A stretch of DNA of 63,614 nucleotides, filler included, from Collodictyon triciliatum (Eukaryota), in NCBI GenBank assembly GCA_043381765.1. It is 44 parts of 44 records of this genome, joined end to end, with 100 filler letters (N's around TTAATTAATTAA, not from the genome) between each part and the next. Parts side by side here need not be neighbours in the genome. Positions count along the whole stretch, not along the records: positions 18,882 to 20,231 come from JBHJMP010011340.1; 43 more parts are not named here. One strand, given 5' to 3'. Positions within the stretch are counted from its first letter, which is position 1, and each line of letters opens with the position of its first letter. Below the pieces are notes generated by a model. It was not told the origin of the DNA. It saw only the letters and a program-made list of their open reading frames with translations, and ran no database searches. Both the position numbers and the translations under genes were made by a program. Positions 2,908-46,237 of this stretch are shown piece after piece.

Positions 2908-4138
2908 ACCGTCCCCTGGTTTCGGAACCATGCGTAGCCGGCAGTGGACTTTGCTTAACCGGAGTATGGATACGCGTTTGTGGTTTTAGAAACATACGCT
3001 CCTGCTCACTCAGACTGTCTTTGGTGTGTGAAGTTCCAAGCTTGGATTCGACTTGTGCTGTTTGCTCTTTCTCCTTGGTTCTCGGCGCGACGGGCTGGGG
3101 CAGGATAAACGGACTATCTTTGGTGGGTGCTTGTTCTTGTGTTGCCTTCGCTTTGGAGTATCCTTTCGGATAAGTAACGAAGACTGCCTTGATGCTTCCA
3201 ATGTTAACCATATTCACGTCAGTCTGAATGGGTAGTTTAAGGGGGATTTCTTTCGGGGTTTGGAGATGCGCGGCTCTTGGGTCTTGCGATGTGCGGGCTT
3301 GTCCGGTGTTGGCGATGATGGCTCGAGTGCGAGATTCTGAAGAGGAACCGAGATTTCCTCCCATTTCACCGTCGCTGTCGCTGAGTGCGCGTATCTGCTG
3401 TGAGTGTTGTGGAGTCTGTTGTTGCCTGGCCTTGGCTTCCTTGGCCCCGTTGCTGCTTGTCTGCTTGGCATGTGTATTCTTTTGCGGGGCTTTTACTTGT
3501 CGTTCGTTGTTCGCGGCTGGCGGACGCTCTTTGAGGATGCAATTTGGACACTTTTTACCCATGACCGTGAACTTTGCAGGGAGCTGGTTCTTATGACAAA
3601 GAAGCTTCACCACGGCCGTGTCTGTCAATAAGCCTTTGTCCTTTTTATCTCTACGTGGGTCGGTCTGAACGGCTTCAGCTCCTCACGAAGGAGTTGCGGC
3701 CACACATCCAGCGGTAGTTGGTAGAGCAACACCGAGGTCTCTGTTGGTTTACTTCTGCTGGAGCTGTTCATGATATCGCTCAAACTTACCTGCTTCAGCT
3801 CCAGAAGCTTTCGGGTGTTTTCTGAAGTGCGGAAGGAAATCAGGCAAAGGCCTTCGCTGTCCGGTAAGCGCAATTGGACGGACTCTTCCCAAAGTTTGTT
3901 CGCTTTCAAGAAGGCGGTGAGCGCATCTGTGAGTCTGCGTGCCTTGTTCATGTTATAAACGACTTGCTCGACCCGTGCAAAAATACAGTCCGCTCAGACA
4001 GACTTGCAGGCGGCTTCCTTGCATGAGTCTTCCTAGACTTACGTGCCACTCGGGGTTTTTCCGCACCACTGTTGGAACCAGAAGAACTGACTGCAACTTG
4101 TAAAGCCTCCAACAAAAGTGTTTTCCATCAGGCGCGGG
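2908..4138 (-). mobile_element. Non-LTR retrotransposon ORF1 (RRM-like), degenerate; family A copy 1
   Basis: Frameshifted frames give ...QVAVSSSG...TVFLHG...VLLYQLPLDVWPQLLREELKPF...DTAVVKLL followed by a disordered Q/T/P/K-rich tail. Closely similar copies lie at 36847-37610 and 55055-55890. Confidence 0.7.
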
Positions 4139-4162
4139 AGGCTTTATGAAAATTAGGCGCGG

Positions 4163-4260
4163 ATACACACATACACACATACATACATACATACATACAT
4201 ACATACATACATACATACATACATACATACATACATACATACATACATACATACATACAT
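4163..4260. repeat. (ACAT)n microsatellite
   Basis: Direct reading. Confidence 0.95.
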
Positions 4261-8595: not shown

Positions 8596-9001
8596 GTATA
8601 TTTGCAATATCATATAAATNNNNNNNNNNNNNNNNNNNNNNNNNNNNNNNNNNNNNNNNNNNNTTAATTAATTAANNNNNNNNNNNNNNNNNNNNNNNNN
8701 NNNNNNNNNNNNNNNNNNNCCAAGGAAGCACAAGCACACAAGTTCTGCACAAGTCGTCTTCTCGGAAAAATCCGCCGGCCTTTGCGGGATATTTAACCTC
8801 GTCTTGTCGAAATCCTTGCTTTTCTTTTTTATTCATTCACAAAGTACTTTCTGATCTCCTTGTGCACAACCCCACCGTCCTGACTCGAGTGATTCTGTCA
8901 TGTGTGATTATGAAGTCCACTCATAAAACAAATAAATGATGTGTATTGTATTGACACCTAGCCAGTCTACCCATATATACAGACAGCCAGAATCTGTCCA
9001 G

Positions 9002-10072
9002 ATGTCCGACTATCTCACACCTGCCCAATTGGATGCGCTTTTGGAAGAAGTCCGGAGACTCTCTGGGAAACCTGATATTGCCACTCTAAAAAGATCCACA
9101 TATCTGGATCTCAGTGGCAAGAATCTGTCATCTGTGCCGCCTGGTGTTTTTTTGTTGACTGGTCTCACAGCATTGGGTCTTGGTGGCAATAAGCTGTCAT
9201 CGCTTCCTGCACAAATATCGTGTTTGACTGGTCTCACAGAACTTTGGGTTTTTAACAATCCGGTATGTTTTTATTCATATATTATATTACTATTTATGTT
9301 TAAAAGAAAATGACTGACAACGATACACGCCAGATGGAGGAGCTTCCAGCACAGATCACAGCCCTCACAAATCTGAAAAATCTCTACATAAACGGAAGCC
9401 CACAAACCATAAAGAGAGCCCCGCGTGGCATCTCAAATCTCCCCTGCTGGAACAACACAGGATACATGGACTACCAACACATCCGCGCTCTGCAGCTCTA
9501 CGACCCCGTAAGCACACATCCAACCCCAACCCCCACATACACAACACAGGACACAACTAGCATAACTCTAGGTCGATACCGCAGCAGAAGCTAGAAGCTA
9601 ACAGACTTACCTGATACCCACAAATCCTCCACTTACACAGGTTGCAGCCAGTCCCAACATCCAGTCCGGCATCTACGCCGCCCCAACCAGCCGCCTAGCC
9701 CGCGGCAAATACGCAGATCTCCTGACAACAGACTTCGAGAAGAAAGAAAACGTCCTGGGTAAGGGCGGCTTCGGGATGGTCTTCAAGGTGCAGCTGAACG
9801 CAGGCCTCTTCGCCGTGAAGCTTGTTGGGAACGCGTCTCTGCTCACCGCCGCCGACGGTTCGGGCCCGGAGAAGGAAGGCAACATGATGCTCGAGCTGCA
9901 GCACCCAAACATCCTGACGCTCTACGACTTTGGCTTCCGCGGCAGAGACCTCCTCCTCGTGATGGAGTTTGCGGACGGCGGAGAGCTCTGCTCACTGGTC
10001 AAGAAGCAAGGGGCACTCAGCCTCGACCTGACCCTCAAGTACGGGCTGCACATCATCCAGGGCCTCGTCTAC
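9002..10072 (+). CDS. Cytosolic LRR-protein kinase (4 LRRs + TKL/IRAK-Pelle-like kinase); exons 9002-9262, 9334-9507, 9641->10072
   Basis: Two phase-0 GT-AG introns join the 23-aa LRRs (LSSLPAQISCLTGL) in frame to a kinase N-lobe: GKGGFGMV, AVK, the alphaC Glu, HPNILTL and VMEFADGG. There is no signal peptide or TM helix. Confidence 0.88.
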
Positions 10073-10172: not shown

Positions 10173-10305
10173 CTATAAAAAACTATAAAAAACTATAAAA
10201 AACTATAAAAAACTATAAAAAACTATAAAAAACTATAAAAAACTATAAAAAACTATAAAAAACTATAAAAATTATAAAAAACTGTAAAAAAAAAACTATA
10301 AAAAA
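10173..10305. repeat. (CTATAAAAAA)n 10-mer tandem repeat, probably intronic
   Basis: Direct reading. It follows a GT donor of the minus-strand BTB gene. Confidence 0.9.
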
Positions 10306-10309
10306 CTAC

Positions 10310-11399
10310 CAGTGGATGTCTGCTCTCCAGCCTCACCCAAAAATTGCTCCTGAATGGCCGCCGTGTAATGTGAATCGTAGACAACTTCAACATCACTAAG
10401 AAACCACCGACCAAGAAACTGGCGATAGTTCGCAAGTCCCTTCGCTATGTGAGCATAAGGATCGGAAGAGGGACGAGAGCAGATATTATGCAACTCTTCC
10501 ATTTCATACCGACGTGCAAGGTTCGAAAAGAGAGACACTCGAGCAGGCTCGCTTGACACTGTGATGTAGTCATTTACATTCAAATATCCCGTATAAACGA
10601 AGGAAAGAAAGTCCATCCACAACTCCGGCGTAATATCGGGGTCATCTAGCACAATTTCTGGGTGAAGAGTGGCAGGGTTATCCCTAAACATCCTCAAAAA
10701 GAACGGACTTGCCGCTGCGAGAACAAGACGATGCGCAGGAATTCGAGCTGTTCCGATGACAAAAGTCAGGTCACTAGTGTCCTGGTTCCCCAGCATGCGA
10801 TGCAGATTGGCATGGGGCGATAACAAAGCGTTTGGTGGCGTTGGACGAAACCCCGAAACCACGCGGATATCGCGAAGATACACGGGTGTGTTCCACGCGG
10901 TGACAGCAACAAAGCGGACGTTCGGAAGAGGCTCAGAATCTGTCCAGCGCATAAACTCGTGTGTGCCCGGCTCACCTTTGCCCACCGTGATGACGCCATC
11001 GTACAGATTGATCCAGTAGCGCTCGAAGCGAAGCCTGGATGAAATCACAGAGTCGGGCTGCGTGCGCTTCTGGGCACATGTCTGCTGCTGTCCTCGCTTG
11101 CGAATCGCAGACTTTGTGTTGAGCCAGCCTCCAATCACGACCTCGTAGCATGTTGCGCCTTGCGTCTGCCCGTCTTGTGAGACAAACGTCCCGTCCATTC
11201 GATCGTTCAGGCCGATGGTGATGTCGTTTTCGGCCTTGGCTTCAAAGAGGACACAGCCGCGGCCCGTCTGTCGGAGATGAAGCTCGGAGTCCTGTAGAAA
11301 CATGTAGCGGCCCCACCAGTCCACTCGCAGCGTGTTTGCGTCGGCCTCTGAGTCTCGGTCTCCAGCACTCGGCGCTGTGTTCGCCCCGGCTTTGCTCAT
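10310..11399 (-). CDS. Farnesoic-acid-O-methyltransferase-like domain + BTB/POZ protein, first exon
   Basis: FEAKAENDITIGL, YEVVIGGWLNTKSAIRK, FERYWI and ITVGKG (FAMT-like domain); SDLTFVIG..IPAHRLVLAAASPFF...FLSFVYTG (BTB); a second BTB begins at FLSDVEVV. Confidence 0.85.
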
Positions 11400-11430
11400 T
11401 CCGCTTCTGTTGGATTGGATTAAAAATCCT

Positions 11431-11524
<94 letters not shown>

Positions 11525-16966: not shown

Positions 16967-17331
16967 CGTCAAAAGCGAGGATTCTGCTCAAAGTTTACCA
17001 CACTCATCAAGAAGCTACACGACAATACCACAACTAGGGTTCTGACTGCACACAGCCCTACTGACATAATCCAGAGACAAAGCGGCGTCTACCAAGGATG
17101 CCCTCTGGCCTCACTTCTCCTTAACTTTGTCGCCGACTGCCTTGCAATCCACTTCAGAAACAACAACAAAATCCGCAACCAATTCCTCCTGCAATATGCC
17201 GACGATACAGCCTTCATCCTTCGCTCCCCTGAAGGCGCTATCCTGGCAAATAAGTGCATGCAAGAATACACACTTGCAGTCGGAGGTAAAATCAACTTCA
17301 ACAAAACAGACGGTGTCCTATTCGGCCTACA
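16967..17331 (+). mobile_element. Non-LTR retrotransposon reverse transcriptase fragment (apparently 5'-truncated)
   Basis: Stop-free frame RGFCSKFTTLIKKLH...SGVYQGCPLASLLLNFVADCL...LQYADDTAF...GGKINFNKT, containing the QGxPLS-like, YADD and G.kiN..Kt motifs. It is missing from the ORF track. Confidence 0.92.
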
Positions 17332-18711: not shown

Positions 18712-19148
18712 GTTTGTATTTTCTCCACTGGAGAAACCTTATTGTTTTGAATAAACAAAAAGCCAAAAAATAACAAAAAAANNNNNNNNNNNNNNNNNNN
18801 NNNNNNNNNNNNNNNNNNNNNNNNNTTAATTAATTAANNNNNNNNNNNNNNNNNNNNNNNNNNNNNNNNNNNNNNNNNNNNAAGGAAGCACAAGCACACA
18901 AGTTCTGCACAAGTCGTCTTCTCTGAAAAATCCGCCGGCCTTTGCGGGATATTTAACGTCGTCTTGTCGAAATCCTTGCTCCTCTTTTCTTATTCACAAA
19001 GTACTTTCTGATCTCTGTGTGCATAACCCACCGTCTGACTCGAGTAGTTCCGTCCTGTGTGATTGTGAAGTCCACTCATAAAACAAACAAATGATGTGTT
19101 TGTATTGACACCCAGCCAGTCTACAATATACAGACGGAATCTGTCCAG

Positions 19149-20231
19149 ATGTCCGACTATCTCACACCTGCCCAAGTGGATGCGCTTTTGGAAGAAGTCT
19201 GGAGACTCACTGAATTTCGAGAACCCGATATTGCCACTCTAAAAAGCTCCACATATCTGGGTCTCGGTTACAAGAATCTGTCATCTGTGCCGCCTGGTGT
19301 TTTTTTGTTGACTGGTCTGAAACGATTGGGTCTTCGTGGCAATAAGCTGTCATCGGTACCTGCACAAATATCGTGTTTGACTGGTCTCACATATCTTGAT
19401 GTTGGTGATAATAACCTGTCGTCACTACCTGCACAAATATCGTGTTTGACTGGTCTTATAAAACTTTATGTTAATGGAAATCAGCTGTCGTCACTACCTG
19501 CACAAATATCGTGTTTGACTGGTCTCATAGAACTTTCTGTTCGTGACAATCAGCTGTCGTCACTACCTGCACAAATATCGTGTTTGACTGGTCTCACATT
19601 ACTTTCTGTTCGTGGCAATCCAGTATGATTTTATTCATATATTATATTACTATTTGTGTTTAAAAGAAAATGACTGACAACGACACACGCAGATGGAGGA
19701 GCTTCCAGCACAGATCACAGCGCTCACAAATCTAAAGAAACTCTACATCGAATGGGAGGGCCGACAAACCATAAAGAGAGCCCCGCGTGGCATCTCAAAT
19801 CTCCCCTGCTGGAACAACACAGAGAAACCTTATTCTAGAATGACACTGAACTTTGCCGACGCCCTCAGAAAGCTGCAGCTCTACGACCCCGTAAGCACAC
19901 ATCCACCCCCAACCCCCACATACACAACACAGGACACAACTAACATAACTCTAGGTCGACACCACCGAAGAAGCCAGAACCTAACAGACTTACCTGACAC
20001 CCACCCACTCCACTTACACAGGTTGCAGCCAGTCCCAACATCCAGTCCGGCATCTACGCCGCCCCAACCGGCCGCCTAGCCCGCGGCAAATACGCAGATC
20101 TCCTGACAACAGACTTCGAGAAGAAAGAGAACGTCCTGGGTAAGGGCGGCTTCGGGATGGTCTTCAAGGTGCAGCTGAACGCAGGCCTCTTCGCCGTGAA
20201 GCTTGTTGGGAACGCGTCTCTGCTCACCGCC
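19149..20231 (+). CDS. Cytosolic LRR-protein kinase paralogue/allele with 7 LRRs; exons 19149-19622, 19693-19890, 20022->20231
   Basis: Upstream region, introns and kinase start are closely similar to those of 9002-10072, but there are three extra 69-nt LRR modules. Confidence 0.88.
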
Positions 20232-21375: not shown

Positions 21376-21448
21376 TGCCGAAACTCGGGATCGAACCAAG
21401 GACATCAAGATCTTCAGTCTTACGCTCTTCCAACTGAGCTATTTCGGC
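21376..21448 (-). tRNA. tRNA-Phe(GAA)
   Basis: GCCGAAATAGCTCAGTTGGAAGAGCGTAAGACTGAAGATCTTGATGTCCTTGGTTCGATCCCGAGTTTCGGCA folds into a full cloverleaf with anticodon loop CTGAAGA and T-loop TTCGATC. Confidence 0.97.
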
Positions 21449-24680: not shown

Positions 24681-26029
24681 TAACTCATCGGTCTGTGGCT
24701 CTTCAGTCTTTGGCTCTTTAATCTTAGGCTCTTCAGCCTTTGGTTCTTCAGTCTTTAACTCATCGGTCTGTGGTTCTTCGGTCTGTGGTTCTTCAGTCTT
24801 AGGTTCTTCAGTCTTAGGTTCTTCAGTCTTTGGCTCTTCAGTCTTTGGTTCTTCAGCCTTTGGTTCTTCGGTCTGTGGTTCTTCGGTATGTGGTTCTTCG
24901 GTATGTGGTTCTTCGGTATGTGGTTCTTCGGTCTTTGGCTCTTCAGTCTTTGGTTCTTCAGTCTTTGGTTCTTCAGTCTGTGGCTCTTCAGTCTTTGGTT
25001 CTTCAGTCTTTAACTCATCGGTCTGTGGTTCTTCGGTCTGTGGTTCTTCAGCCTTTGGTTCTTCAGCCTTTGGTTCTTCGGTCTTTGGTTCATCAGTCTG
25101 TGGCTCTTCAGCCTTGGGTTCTTCAGCCTGTGGTTCTTCGGTCTGTGGTTCTTCGGTCTGTGGTTCTTCGGTCTGTGGTTCTTCGGTCTGTGGTTCTTCG
25201 GTCTGTGGCTCTTCAGTCTGTGGTTCTTCGGTCTGTGGTTCTTCGGTCTGTGGTTCTTCGGTCTGTGGTTCTTCGGTATGTGGTTCTTCGGTATGTGGTT
25301 TTTCGGTCTGTGGTTCTTCGGTCTGTGGTTCTTCAGTCTGTGGTTCTTCAGTCTGTGGTTCTTCCCTTTCAAATGCATCATCATACTTTGGTTCATCGGT
25401 CTGTGGCTCTTCAATCTTACGCTCTTCAGTCTTTGGTTCTTCAGCCTGTGGTTCATCGGCCTTTGGCTCATCGGTCTGTGGCTCTTCAGTCTTTGGCTCT
25501 TCAGTCTTTGGCTCTTCAGTCTTTGGCTCTTCAGTCTGTGGTTCTTCAATCTTGGGCTCTTCAGTCTTTAGTTCTTCAGTCTGTGGCTCTTCAGCCTTTG
25601 GTTCTTCAGTCTGTAGCTCTTCAGTCTGTGGTTCTTCAGTCTGTGGTTCTTCAGTCTTTGGTTCTTCAGTCTGTGGCTCTTCAGTCTGTGGCTCTTCAGC
25701 CTTTGGTTCTTCAGTCTGTAGCTCTTCAGTCTGTGGCTCTTCAGTCTGCGGCTCTTCAGTCTGCGGCTCTTCAGTCTGCGGCTCTTCAGTCTGCGGCTCT
25801 TCAGTCTGCGGCTCTTCAATCTTGGGCTCTTCAGTCTTTAGTTCTTCAGTCTGTGGCTCTTCAGCCTTTGGTTCTTCAGTCTGTAGCTCTTCAGTCTGCG
25901 GCTCTTCAGTCTGTGGTTCTTCAATCTGTGGCTCTTCAGTCTTTGGCTCTTCAGTCTGTGGTTCTTCAATCTTGGGCTCTTCAGTCTTTAGTTCTTCAGT
26001 CTGTGGCTCTTCAGCCTTTGGTTCTTCAG
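24681..26029 (-). CDS. Acidic pentapeptide-repeat protein fragment, (T/A/I)EEP(Q/K) about 88 times (15-nt tandem repeat)
   Basis: The minus-strand frame is stop-free across the contig, including the unique insert TDEPKYDDAFEREEPQ. The plus-strand VVLRS and CGSSV ORFs are antisense shadows. Confidence 0.7.
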
Positions 26030-34716: not shown

Positions 34717-36846
34717 NNNNNNNNNNNNNNNNNNNNNNNNNNNNNNNNNNNNNNNNNNNNTTAATTAATTAANNNNNNNNNNNNNNNNNNNNNNNNNNNN
34801 NNNNNNNNNNNNNNNNAAAAAAAAGAAAAGAAAAAGAAAAGAAAAAGAAAAGAAAAAGAAAAAGAAAAGAAAAAAGAAAAGAAAAAAGAAAAGAAAAAAG
34901 AAAAGAAAAAGGAAAAAGAAAAGAAAAGAAAAGAAAAGAAAAGAAAAAGCAAAAAGAAAAGAAAAAAGAGAAAGAAAGGATAAAGAAAAGAAAAAGAAAA
35001 AGGAAAAAGAAAAAGAAAAAAGAAAAAGAAAAAGAAAAAGAAAAGAAAAGAAAAGAAAAAGAAAAGAAAAAGAAAAGAAAAGAAAAAGAAAAAGAAAAAG
35101 AAAAAGAAAAAGAAAAAGAAAAAGAAAAAGAAAAAGAAAAAGAAAAAGAAAAAGAAAAAGAAAAAGAAAAGAAAAAGCAAACAAAAGAAGGGTGTGTTTG
35201 ATCAAGCCAGAACGAACGCAGCACCAGGCGACCACTCCAACCCGATAACAGGTCTTCGATATTAATACTTACTATTTGATATTAACACACTCCATGGAAA
35301 GGTTCGAATAGTGATTCAAAAGGAAAGCAATAAATATAACCAGAGCAGACGCTTGATGAAAGCCCAGCAGCGCAACAACCACAGCCGGAGCCGTTCTCAC
35401 CCACTTTCCACTTCTCTTTCCGATCACCTCTCCTCTTTTCGGCCTGAATTCAGCATATGTGGAACATTGTGCAATTTGTTTGGCCGGGTTGGAATTCACA
35501 CGGGACAACGCACCAAAACACATCCCCAATTTATCCAAACACACAGCAAAACTCGGCTGCATCGCACTGCTGCGGAAATCCTATCGCTGAAGCAGGCGTT
35601 CGGCTGAATCGATACTACGAGAGGCGGCCGGTGGCTTGAAATAGGTCGGCGTGTGGGCCAACTCTGCTTGCTCCGGGTGGTTGCTGAGGCGCAGTGTGGT
35701 GTGATGTGATGTGATGCCTGATGGCTGTCTCAATTGCAGATACCGCCGGCATCCCATCATGCGCCTCATAGAACTAATTCACCAAATATCACAACAATGC
35801 TAATCTACTTCACAGCGTGAAAAGATATAAATTAAGAGGAAAAAACGAAAAAAAATGGAAGTAGAGCCTTATCATGCATGCAACAGTATGGTTCCGCATG
35901 GGTGATATGCATATGTCTTTCATGCAAAGTTCAACAAAAGTAATCTACCTGGATATCCCAGGGCTTATAACCACAGAAGTTGTGAATATAATGAGTTCAG
36001 AGTTCCGTTTATACAATATTTTTTAATTTGTTTATTTGATAATGCACCAAATCAATGGTGGACACTGTGATTACTCTTTGGCAGATGAATTCGATTCGAT
36101 TAATAATAAATGTATTAATTTTTTATTGTGTTCAGAGGAGGAAAAATTCAACTAGAATGATATTNNNNNNNNNNNNNNNNNNNNNNNNNNNNNNNNNNNN
36201 NNNNNNNNTTAATTAATTAANNNNNNNNNNNNNNNNNNNNNNNNNNNNNNNNNNNNNNNNNNNNCGGCGTTGGGTGCGGCTTTGCCTGTGAGCGTGCCTG
36301 CCGAGTTGGAGGGCACGTTTGGGTCTTTGTCCGCAGCGGAAGGGGAGCCTCTTGTGGAGTCTTTGGGGTTGGCGGGGGTTTTGCCATGGTTGGTGTGTGC
36401 GCTGACTCTGGAATCGGTGCGAGCTGTGGTGTGGCTTCACCTTTGTTGTGGGGCAAAGCGCTCGGCCGTCTCCCTGCGGGGGTACGCAAGGCCCAAGCCG
36501 CTCGACAGGTCGGATGCCAGCAGCACAACGCCCTCCGTGGCGCACTCGCGGGTGCGGTGGACTTCGCACAGCTGCGCCAACAGGCGCAGGCGTGTGGCGT
36601 GTGTCAGTGTCTCAGTGTACTCGCCCACAAGGCACACCACGCAGCCGGCCGGGTAGAGTCCCTTCTCCTGCAGTCCCGCTGCTCGCTCCACCAGTCGCGT
36701 CCGGTAATGCTCGTATACCACATTCTCGTCGTCAAGTTGAGGCTTGGTTGCCATCCGTGTGGTTTTTGTGCAAAACCAAAGGGCTAATCGGTTAGAGCAG
36801 CTTCAGATTCGAATCATAGGCACACATTAAAGACACTTTCACCCTG

Positions 36847-37610
36847 CCCGCGCCTGATTGAAAACACAAGACGCGACCCGTCGAAGGCTTCGCAAGTTGC
36901 AGCCAGTTCTTCTGGTTCCAACGCTGGTGCGGAAAACCCCGAGTTGCACGTAAGTCTAGGAAGACGTGTGCAAGGAAGCCGCCTGCAAGTTTGTCTGAGC
37001 GGATAGTATTTTTGCACGGGGTCGAGCAAGTCGTTTACAACAAGAACAAGGCCCGCAGGCTCACAGATGCACTCGCCTCCTTCTTGAAAGGAACAAACTT
37101 TGGGAAGAGTCCATCCAATTGCGCTTACCGGACAGCGAAGGCCTTTGCCTGATTGCCTTCCGCCCTGCAGAGAACGCCCGAAAGCTTCTGGAGCCGAAGC
37201 AGGTAAGTTTGAGCGATATTACGATCAGCTTCAGCAGAAGTAGACCAACAGAGACCTCGGCGATGCTCTACCAACTACCGCTGAACGTGTGGCCGCAACT
37301 TATTCATGAGGAGCCGAAGCCGTTCAGACCGACCCACGTGGAGATCAAAAAGGGACAAAGGCTTCTTCACAGACACGGCCGTGGTGAAGCTTGTTTATCA
37401 TAAGAACCAGCTCCCTGAAAAGTTTACGGTCATGGGCAAAAAGTGTCCAAAGCGCGTCCTCAAAGAGCGTCCGCCAGCCGCGAACAACGAACGACAAGCA
37501 AAAACCCGCAAAAGAATACACCCGCCAAGCAGACAAGCAGCAACGGGGTCAAGGAAGCCAAGGCCAGGCAACAACTGAGCCCGCAAGACTCACAGCAGAT
37601 ACGCGCATAC
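36847..37610 (+). mobile_element. Non-LTR ORF1 family A copy 2 (5' part, frameshifted)
   Basis: Aligns with the reverse complement of 3390-4138. Confidence 0.75.
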
Positions 37611-45790: not shown

Positions 45791-46237
45791 ATGGCTGATC
45801 GCGCCGCCCGTCTCGAAGAGCTGCGAGAAATCGTCGGTGGCAGCATCGCGGAGCTCGAAAAACGCACAGAGCTGAGTCTCCATATTAAAAATCTGACTTC
45901 TGTGCCGCCCGGTGTCTGGGATCTGCCAGGCTTGGTGGACTTGTGGCTCTTTGACAATCAGCTTTCGTCGCTGCCGCCGGAAATATCGCAGTTGACGGGA
46001 CTCGCGGAGCTTTATGTTCACAACAACAAGCTTTCGTCGCTGCCGCCGGAAATATTGCAGTTGACGGGACTCGAAGTGCTTAATGTTAGTGTAAACCAGC
46101 TTTCGTCGCTGCCGCCGGAAATATCGCAGTTGACGGGACTCGAACTGCTTGATGTTCAAAACAACCGGCTTTCGTCGCTGCCGCCGGAAATATCGCAGTT
46201 GACGGGACTCACGTGGCTTTATGTTTCCCTGAACCCT
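45791..46237 (+). CDS. LRR protein first exon, distant paralogue of the 9002/19149 family
   Basis: MADRAARLEELRE...KNLTSVPPGVWDL followed by 23-aa LSSLPPEISQLTGL modules. The exon ends NP|GTAAGT at the same position and phase as in the LRR-kinases. Confidence 0.85.

Follow-up and report, generated by a model that had tools for sequence, protein, structure and literature searches.

Homogenised tandem leucine-rich repeat modules with hypervariable binding-face codons in a predicted cytosolic kinase family of Collodictyon triciliatum

Gene models

The analysis was carried out on a 63,614-base stretch of DNA (the window) from the Collodictyon triciliatum assembly GCA_043381765.1 and was centred on a gene, here gene B, that joins an array of leucine-rich repeat (LRR) modules to the start of a protein kinase. 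The window is made up of 44 unrelated contigs, each of 1343-1354 bp, arranged in descending order of length and with a GC content of 0.31-0.57; according to the N-run map, the joints between them are linkers of 44 N, TTAATTAATTAA and 44 N, and gene-neighbourhood arguments across the linkers are therefore void. Genes of the same LRR-kinase family were found on three of the 44 contigs (genes A, B and C). The pattern that they display is probably the result of concerted evolution of tandem LRR modules combined with diversifying selection on the codons of the binding face, in a large family of cytosolic LRR-kinase recognition receptors. A prediction made beforehand from the sequence alone (the original prediction) had drawn attention to the modules of gene B and had proposed concerted evolution with strong diversifying selection, or a targeted mutagenic process, as the cause.

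Gene B was modelled with three exons and two introns (Table 1). Each module comprises 23 codons (69 bp), of which the first ten read L1 x2 x3 L4 x5 V/L6 x7 x8 N9 x10 and the remaining 13 are termed the framework. The repeat unit of gene B extends from the first, degenerate module at 19248 to the end of the exon at 19622, so that the extent originally predicted, 19270-19622, was correct at its 3' end and slightly too narrow at its start. For comparison with contig B, contigs from four sequencing runs were aligned at an identity of at least 80%: two small runs labelled with the organism (X1 and X2, RNA by guess), a freshwater metagenome (X3) and a freshwater metatranscriptome (X5). Both introns of gene B were backed by spliced contigs from the RNA-type runs, and the host of the gene is a freshwater eukaryote with GT-AG spliceosomal introns and the standard genetic code. 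Contig A (8720-10072) is 88-89% identical to contig B across the alignable parts, and the protein encoded by exon 1 of gene C is 55-58% identical to the A/B subfamily. Within genes A and B the GC content of third codon positions contrasts strongly between exons: it rises from 0.33-0.40 in the LRR exon to 0.62-0.64 in exon 2 and reaches 0.77-0.81 in the kinase exon. For the LRR exon of gene C the value is 0.62.

Table 1. Coordinates of the LRR-kinase genes and their modules in the window
Feature	Position	Strand	Basis
Contig B, carrying gene B	18882-20231		N-run map and contig table
Gene B exon 1: N-terminal helix and LRR modules M0-M5; 3' end AAT CCA / GT	19149-19622	+	Open reading frame, translation, Pfam, AlphaFold2 model
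Gene B module M0, first and more divergent/degenerate	19248-19316	+	Framework equal to that of copy A; 13/39 bases from gene C M0
Gene B module M1	19317-19385	+	Framework 3 bases from M2-M4; TTG at codon 4 and CTT at codon 6, as in M1 of A and C
Gene B modules M2, M3 and M4 (3 x 69 bp), absent from copy A	19386-19592	+	Identical 39-base framework, hypervariable x codons
Gene B M5, variable half of the last exon 1 module	19593-19622	+	Framework half in exon 2 (19693-19731); RNA contigs splice cassettes here to 19692/19693
Gene B intron 1, 70 nt, GT..AG, phase 0	19623-19692	+	Read directly; RNA contigs from X1, X2 and X5 have joints to 19692
Gene B exon 2: M5 framework, last module with variable x positions, motif APRGISNLPCWNN, variable linker to LQLYDP	19693-19890	+	Translation
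Gene B intron 2, 131 nt, GT..AG	19891-20021	+	Joint 19890 to 20022 in 2 contigs of X1 and 1 of X5
Gene B exon 3: protein kinase start (GKGGFG loop, AVK lysine); leaves the contig end	20022-20231	+	98.6% identity over 70 residues to exon 3 of copy A
Gene A exon 1, an allele of B or a paralogue, reduced to M0, M1 and one variable cassette, the last (LTELWVFNNP)	9002-9262	+	Reading, alignment
Gene A intron 1, GT..AG	9263-9333	+	Read directly; aligned to B intron 1
Gene A exon 2	9334-9507	+	Stop-free translation
Gene A intron 2, GT..AG	9508-9640	+	Read directly; alignment
Gene A exon 3: kinase N-lobe, 144 residues; leaves the contig end before the catalytic loop	9641-10072	+	Pfam Pkinase 3.5e-14
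Gene C exon 1, second subfamily; ends AAC CCT / GTAAGT at the intron position of A and B	45791-46237	+	Contig 44944-46286
Gene C module starts	45863, 45932, 46001, 46070, 46139, 46208	+	Sequence register

Domain assignment and structure prediction

Exon 1 of gene B matched the Pfam families LRR_8 (8e-20) and LRR_4 (1.5e-19), and its PDB sequence matches included LIC12759 (3.6e-64) and SHOC2 (9e-55), by which the array was assigned to the 23-residue, SHOC2/Leptospira-like class. A single-sequence AlphaFold2 prediction of the exon reached a predicted local distance difference test (pLDDT) value of 53.8 and was replaced by a model computed with a 48-sequence alignment, which reached 94.8. Six β-strands were observed in this model, spaced 23 residues apart (residues 36-38, 59-61, 82-84, 105-107, 128-130 and 151-153) and corresponding to module positions 3-5, with x3 and x5 predicted to flank the buried L4 within the strand and the framework predicted to form a helix (positions 16-20) and loops. 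Residues on the strand side of LRRs form the ligand-binding concave face, an arrangement that the predicted model fits. The best Foldseek matches of the model were Leptospira LIC12234 and SHOC2 (TMq 0.79), together with hagfish and lamprey variable lymphocyte receptors (VLRs; TMq 0.70-0.76, with the hagfish VLR at 0.76).

The N-terminus is predicted to form an amphipathic helix (H7-20); on direct reading, no signal peptide was seen in the N-terminus of exon 1 and no hydrophobic or transmembrane stretch in exon 2 and the start of exon 3. Exon 3 of gene A was identified as a protein kinase with a GKGGFG glycine-rich loop and an AVK lysine; contigs A and B both end before the catalytic loop, whose HRD motif is needed, along with DFG, for an active enzyme. 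The best PDB matches of this N-lobe were S6K, DAPK and ULK (E about 1e-10), not plant or IRAK-type receptor kinases. Between the LRR array and the glycine loop lie exon 2 (66 or 58 residues) and about 35 residues of exon 3, a spacer in which direct reading of genes A and B detected no Roc or COR domain; neither was any Pfam Roc or COR match obtained on the related proteins P0392 and P0256 described below.

Three known classes of receptor were considered on this basis and rejected. Membership of the NOD-like receptors (NLRs) was discarded as the confirmed splices joining exons 1-3 leave no space for a NACHT or NB-ARC NOD, the kinase being reached within about 90 residues. A plant-type LRR receptor kinase was rejected on account of the lack of a signal peptide or transmembrane segment on reading and of a kinase closest to S6K, DAPK and ULK, and a ROCO/LRRK kinase on account of a spacer consisting of exon 2 and about 35 residues, without Roc-COR. 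Among the features of repeat receptors with high internal conservation, an identical framework, hypervariable x codons, and x3 and x5 placed in the strand were present; the family would work like the internally conserved repeat receptors, yet it is not an NLR family.

Codon variation within the modules

A 41-base framework sequence singled out in the original prediction was located exactly at 19416, 19485 and 19554, and with three mismatches at 19347 and 9194, whilst 100 dinucleotide-preserving shuffles of the sequence returned no match. Tandem Repeats Finder reported an indel-free repeat at 19333-19620 with a period of 69, 4.2 copies and 86% matches. In-register translation of the gene B modules gave LKRLGLRGNK, LTYLDVGDNN, LIKLYVNGNQ, LIELSVRDNQ and LTLLSVRGNP, and LTELWVFNNP for the last module of gene A, in agreement with the x residues that had been listed for the modules and for the copy at 9002.

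Variation was found to be almost entirely restricted to the x codons. Across M2-M5 of gene B, 13 of the 18 x-codon columns vary, compared with one of the 12 columns of codons 1, 4, 6 and 9, the intervening codons that had been described as fixed; in the framework of M2-M4 none of the 39 columns is variable, and the near-identity of the framework, synonymous sites included, was in this way borne out. When x columns were set against all conserved codons, the counts were 13/18 and 1/51 in gene B (Fisher p = 2.8e-9) and 15/18 and 1/51 in gene C (p = 2.2e-11), with 0/12 columns varying at codons 1, 4, 6 and 9 of gene C. Third positions of conserved codons are variable at 1/17 in B and 0/17 in C, and those of x codons in 3/6 columns in B and 4/6 in C. 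The earlier remark that changes fall mostly on codon positions 1 and 2 is literally correct (10 of 13 columns), but it is uninformative, being close to the two-thirds expected by chance and accompanied by variation at three of the six third positions.

Pairwise nucleotide differences amounted to 46-61% at x codons and to 0-4% at codons three bases away. The proportion of nonsynonymous sites that differ (pN) at x codons was 0.515 in B and 0.622 in C, and the corresponding synonymous proportion (pS) over all conserved codons was 3/55 in B and 0/53.7 in C; relative to these neighbouring silent sites as an external yardstick, the x positions change at least ten-fold faster. Inside the x codons themselves pS was 0.277 (B) and 0.568 (C). 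Among pairs of x positions occupied by the same residue, one codon was shared in 19 of 24 cases in genes A and B and in 4 of 5 in gene C, and adjacent modules are separated by single-base steps at x codons. Because same-residue pairs keep their codons and neighbouring modules differ by such steps, the codon comparison identifies the history of the x codons as one of descent with point substitutions, not of wholesale randomisation.

Comparison of copies A, B and C

Positionally homologous modules of A and B differ at 23 of 70 x-codon bases (33%), compared with 14 of 202 in the introns (6.9%; p = 4e-7). The remaining partitions differed at 5 of 134 positions in conserved LRR codons, 2 of 210 in the kinase exon, and 25 of 267 in the 5' flank; the boundary between exon 2 and intron 2 was placed one base off in these partition counts, which does not change them materially. 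A second variable stretch lies within exon 2, between LPCWNNT and LQLYDP, at 19820-19870 in B and 9460-9487 in A, with 22 of 107 aligned bases different between the copies and a further 21 gap columns. The two copies are further separated by an in-frame indel of 207 bp, exactly three modules (3 x 69), with its junction in the framework.

Among the 39-base frameworks, no base separates M2, M3 and M4 of gene B, and 0-1 separate M1-M4 of gene C; a framework of B and one of C are 12-14 bases apart, with several synonymous changes among them, and it is because of this difference between genes that the arrays can be described as homogenised from within. At the edges of the arrays a different relationship was found: the framework of M0 is identical in A and B and lies 13 bases from that of gene C M0, and M1 of all three genes has TTG at codon 4 and a leucine codon at position 6, unlike the internal modules. 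Judged from these sequences, the edge modules are positional homologues, and the internal modules have been homogenised within the gene or subfamily, in support of the concerted evolution put forward in the original prediction. Unequal crossing-over and conversion classically leave tandem arrays in such a state.

Two side observations concern the comparison of B with C. Codons 1, 4 and 6 of the internal modules are CTC, CTT and GTT in both genes, despite frameworks that are 12-14/39 apart. Silent sites inside the variable segment also look more conserved between the two genes than framework silent sites, in a comparison of small numbers.

Transcript variants and database relatives

At the identity threshold given above, 180 contigs of X1, 207 of X2, 15 of X3 and 98 of X5 were aligned on contig B; word depths of contigs in these runs were not taken as a measure of copy number or expression level, and further freshwater, soil and wetland runs were not counted as evidence of habitat. 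Ten spliced contigs carry the family framework followed by ten different last-module cassettes and then the common exon 2; the LRR-kinase family is large and, by these contigs, is expressed in many variants. Translated by hand, their x7-x8 pairs are FL, FD, FN, ES, DV, EN, RE, CN, CR and NI. Codon 4 is CTT in all five spliced contigs in which it could be seen, and some synonymous variation occurs at codons 6 (GTT/GTA) and 9 (AAT/AAC) across the family.

Searches beyond these runs were carried out with exon 1, with the framework and with the kinase fragment. A metagenome scan with exon 1 gave 443 pattern matches, from which two loci were confirmed, at 44% and 33% identity and outside the family. 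Word-indexed protein searches with the same exon returned, among the 120 longer proteins listed, only generic multi-repeat LRR proteins of at most 55% identity and, among the 120 listed of similar length, none above 58% identity. The framework DNA pattern had no match in genome contigs or in viral contigs, and the ESM Atlas contributed generic bacterial LRR clusters only. When the kinase fragment was compared with longer proteins, none of 1680 candidates passed E <=1e-10, a cut-off too strict for 144 residues in that search; against 1.84 billion representatives, searched exhaustively, it found 57 proteins at E <=1e-10, all of them at most 42% identical.

Pfam scans were run on 15 of the 150 listed kinase relatives, and the source organism was checked for two of the 150. 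P0256 was found to consist of LRRs and a kinase, and P0392 of LRRs, an SH3 domain (SH3_1, 7e-5) and a kinase, with P0248 a truncated form of P0392; P0392/P0248 and P0256 are proteins from the Diphylleia rotans transcriptome (EukProt EP00002). Exon 2 of gene B aligned with residues 201-262 of P0392 at 45% identity over 62 residues (E 5e-18), the gene A kinase with P0392 at 39% (E 8e-26) and exon 1 with P0256 at 36% (E 4e-17). Four more EukProt matches from the LRR searches also belong to D. rotans, and one other to Hanusia phi. By these alignments, the nearest database relatives found are the LRR-kinases of D. rotans, and on the strength of six EukProt proteins the host of the genes is probably close to Diphyllatea. 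In the variable stretch of exon 2, it is copy B that a D. rotans relative matches.

Like the genes described here, with which they form one family by sequence, the D. rotans relatives have an N-terminal LRR array, the family-specific motif APRG..LPCW and then a kinase, and the D. rotans fragments P0145 and P0207 show repeated identical frameworks with variable x positions at the protein level. The full-length D. rotans proteins, unlike genes A, B and C, contain ordinary, mutually divergent LRRs; one of them has an SH3 domain between LRR and kinase that is lacking from genes A and B, and the relatives carry the HRDLKP and DFG motifs, whereas contigs A and B end before the catalytic loop. A further D. 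rotans protein, P0016 (1482 aa), was read as a similar N-terminal LRR array with a PKGITTLPFW-type motif, in which a cysteine-rich RING/B-box-like region and C-terminal repeats take the place of the kinase. The D. rotans proteins suggest that in this lineage an LRR sensor module has been combined with different effector domains.

Assessment of the evolutionary model

The mechanism proposed starts from an N-terminal array of 23-residue LRR modules, laid out in each gene as 69-bp tandem repeats inside a single exon. Unequal crossing-over or gene conversion between identical frameworks would duplicate, delete and homogenise internal modules for each gene or subfamily, and would account both for the identical synonymous sites and for the three-module length difference between A and B. 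Codons 2, 3, 5, 7, 8 and 10, which face the solvent around the β-strand, are meanwhile replaced far faster than introns or adjacent synonymous sites, most likely because diversifying selection favours novel binding specificities. Cassettes passed between paralogues probably add to the x-codon diversity; three genes were available in which to trace such exchange, two of which, A and B, show the three-module difference with its junction in the framework. By analogy with known receptors, the role predicted for the LRR face is to bind variable ligands (from prey, parasites, symbionts or non-self), and that of the kinase is to pass on the signal.

Several points weigh against this model and in particular against selection as the cause. 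Within x codons alone the pN/pS ratio was 1.9 in B and 1.1 in C, values near saturation, so that selection can be argued for only by taking framework, interspersed-codon and intron sites as the neutral reference. The third positions of x codons also vary, as a mutational process targeted to these codons would likewise predict. The comparison covers a very small sample, 15 modules in three genes, the pairwise sums are non-independent and pN/pS is not a formal site-model test; in addition, the order of the modules on contig B rests on that one contig, none of the sequencing runs reaching half of its words and the best share being 0.18. Of the strong diversifying selection put forward in the original prediction, the fast change confined to x codons accordingly stood (33% against 6.9% in introns, and pN of 0.52 and 0.62), and the ratio inside the x codons (1.9 and 1.1) did not lend it the same weight. 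A ratio at or below 1 at the x positions, or equal synonymous divergence in framework and x positions, had been named as grounds for abandoning selection, and neither was found with framework or intron sites as the neutral yardstick.

An explanation without positive selection, which we consider unlikely, is that the variable segments are old neutral cassettes between which short-tract conversion has been limited to the framework. In its favour, frameworks of 39-47 identical bases lend themselves readily to conversion, heteroduplex would be halted at the mismatched x segments, and the frameworks are homogenised within genes. This explanation is disfavoured, however, because in old drifting cassettes the silent sites of codons 1, 4, 6 and 9 should have diverged too, whereas these codons, inside the variable segment, vary in only 1/12 columns in B and 0/12 in C; the x codons of A and B are, moreover, about five times more diverged than the introns.

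Programmed diversification, in which x codons would be overwritten or cassettes exchanged by targeted mutation or templated copying, in the germline or in a somatic/clonal setting, was judged to be quite improbable; its models are the assembly of lamprey VLRs and a process hypothesised for the ROCO genes of Ectocarpus. It would accommodate near-random x codons (46-61%) beside 0-4% three bases away, the variation of x third positions in 7/12 columns against 1/34 in conserved codons, and ten spliced transcripts with ten cassettes next to a common framework and exon 2. It is difficult to reconcile with the use of the same codon in 23 of 29 same-residue x pairs, with the single-base steps between neighbouring modules, with a spectrum lacking base specificity or transition bias and with genes that stand on their contigs as complete open reading frames, none of them a germline gene still lacking its cassettes; in fungi, moreover, this pattern arises without a somatic process (PMC4986451). 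A deaminase-like spectrum was rejected separately, as transition bias is absent (transversions to transitions 33:17 and 45:21).

Recent tandem duplication with merely relaxed constraint at the x positions (omega about 1) is very unlikely. The pN/pS ratio near 1 at the x codons of gene C (0.622/0.568) is what it would lead one to expect, but neutral sites cannot outpace introns or neighbouring synonymous sites, and the present counts therefore refute it, with 33% of x-codon bases changed against 6.9% in introns (p = 4e-7) and 13/18 x columns variable against 1/17 conserved third positions (p = 8e-5).

There is a similarly slight chance that the array of contig B is an assembly artefact, a chimeric path through a repeat common to paralogues. 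Exact repeats of 41-47 bases in a family of hundreds could give rise to such a path, and contig B was reproduced by no public run (best word share 0.18); the same pattern was nevertheless found in gene C, in the positional homologues of A and B, in RNA contigs and in D. rotans transcript fragments, and a chimeric contig B would leave the hypervariability of the family untouched.

The action of a diversity-generating retroelement, whose reverse transcriptase copies an invariant template into a variable repeat with mutations specific to adenines, had been raised as a targeted process acting at one template base and can be dismissed as scarcely credible: an RVT_1 fragment does occur in the window (16967-17329, 1.7e-9), but it lies on an unrelated contig, contig B (1350 bp) holds this gene alone, the host is a eukaryote with spliceosomal introns, AAT and AAC, the classic target codons of these elements, are here the conserved ones, and the base spectrum refutes the process, since each of ten modules tried as template gave a share of mismatches at template A of 0.08-0.56, never near 1, with transversions exceeding transitions.

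Additional features of the window

The RVT_1 fragment just mentioned is on the plus strand, contains a YADD motif and has the appearance of a retrotransposon remnant. A common dispersed repeat is shared by the contigs at 2908-4260, 36265-37610 and 55055-56398, with 89-95% identity over 230-764 bp and long open reading frames, and is probably a mobile element. Two contigs are open in one frame throughout: that at 49279-50622 (+) encodes cysteine-rich Ephrin_rec_like repeats (1e-72, nine stretches) with long, near-identical internal units, which makes it a further repeat protein with internal conservation, and that at 24681-26029 (-) encodes EEPQT/EEPKT pentapeptide repeats. An open reading frame at 10299-11423 (-) contains a Methyltransf_FA domain (farnesoic acid O-methyltransferase-like) followed by BTB, and adjoins a run of 93 T at 11432-11524. 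The sole Rfam match in the window is a tRNA gene at 21376-21448 (-), with 65 bits, which is not on contig B.

Discussion

The LRRs of plant NLRs, receptor-like proteins and receptor-like kinases have hypervariable xxLxLxx segments, with selection on the solvent-exposed strand residues and unequal crossing-over. Plant LRRs differ from those described here in having 24 residues and in being either extracellular, with a transmembrane segment and a Pelle/IRAK-type kinase, or coupled to NB-ARC, whereas the present modules have 23 residues and are predicted to be cytosolic. VLRs resemble the present array in their conserved LRR framework and hypervariable concave face, and matched its predicted fold (TMq 0.70-0.76). 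VLR genes are incomplete in the germline and are filled in somatically with flanking cassettes, and their products are secreted or anchored in the membrane, whereas the genes analysed here are complete on their contigs, carry a kinase and show no sign of somatic assembly in the contig data.

Closer parallels in mode of evolution are provided by the fungal NLR repeats, for which a survey describes internal conservation, concerted evolution through shuffling or exchange of repeats inside and among paralogues, repeat-number polymorphism and positively selected binding codons (WD40 repeats of Podospora anserina HNWD/het-d/het-e, and ANK and TPR repeats), without LRRs and with repeat-induced point mutation proposed as mutator (PMC4986451). 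As in the present genes, near-identical tandem repeats within each gene there contain a few hypervariable binding-surface codons per repeat. The survey describes WD40, ANK or TPR repeats combined with a NACHT or NB-ARC NOD in fungi, whereas LRRs are combined here with a protein kinase in a non-fungal host. In the brown alga Ectocarpus siliculosus, LRR-ROCO GTPases and LRR-kinases have been put forward as candidate immune receptors and show signs that positions on the binding face are under diversifying selection; their LRRs are encoded one to an exon of 72 nt, and variability comes from exon shuffling, which was reported for the ROCOs, not the LRR-kinases (PMC3341825). The likeness to the present family lies in the union, within a protist, of a cytosolic, modular LRR region and a signalling enzyme; the difference is that LRRs occupy single 72-nt exons in Ectocarpus, whereas 69-nt modules follow one another head to tail in one exon here, the internal ones being identical outside the x codons.

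The evolutionary regime has thus already been described, for the repeats of fungal NLRs and for LRR proteins of brown algae, and is found here in a new architecture and a new lineage. What sets the present family apart is the type of repeat, LRR, in comparison with fungi, the placement of tandem modules in one exon in comparison with Ectocarpus, and direct fusion to a kinase without a NOD or Roc-COR. No paper on such an LRR-kinase family, and none linking Diphyllatea with leucine-rich repeats, was found in a literature search outside of which most subscription journals lay. The CRuMs lineage, to which Diphylleia belongs, branches near the base of Amorphea.

With near-random x codons lying three bases from synonymous sites that have not changed, the family offers a clear-cut case in which selection and targeted diversification can be set against each other. 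Should programmed diversification among the many family members, possibly in the course of clonal growth, prove true, improbable as we hold it to be, it would mean an anticipatory LRR repertoire, wired to a kinase, in a deep-branching unicellular predator and convergent with the VLRs of lampreys. In plants, fungi, brown algae and jawless vertebrates, fast-evolving repeat receptors that combine a homogenised scaffold with a hypervariable binding face are hallmarks of immunity or of the recognition of non-self. With concerted evolution and diversifying selection as the probable explanation, the present genes would represent one more large repertoire for recognition that arose independently, and would supply a concrete candidate family for a lineage without described immune or prey-recognition genes.

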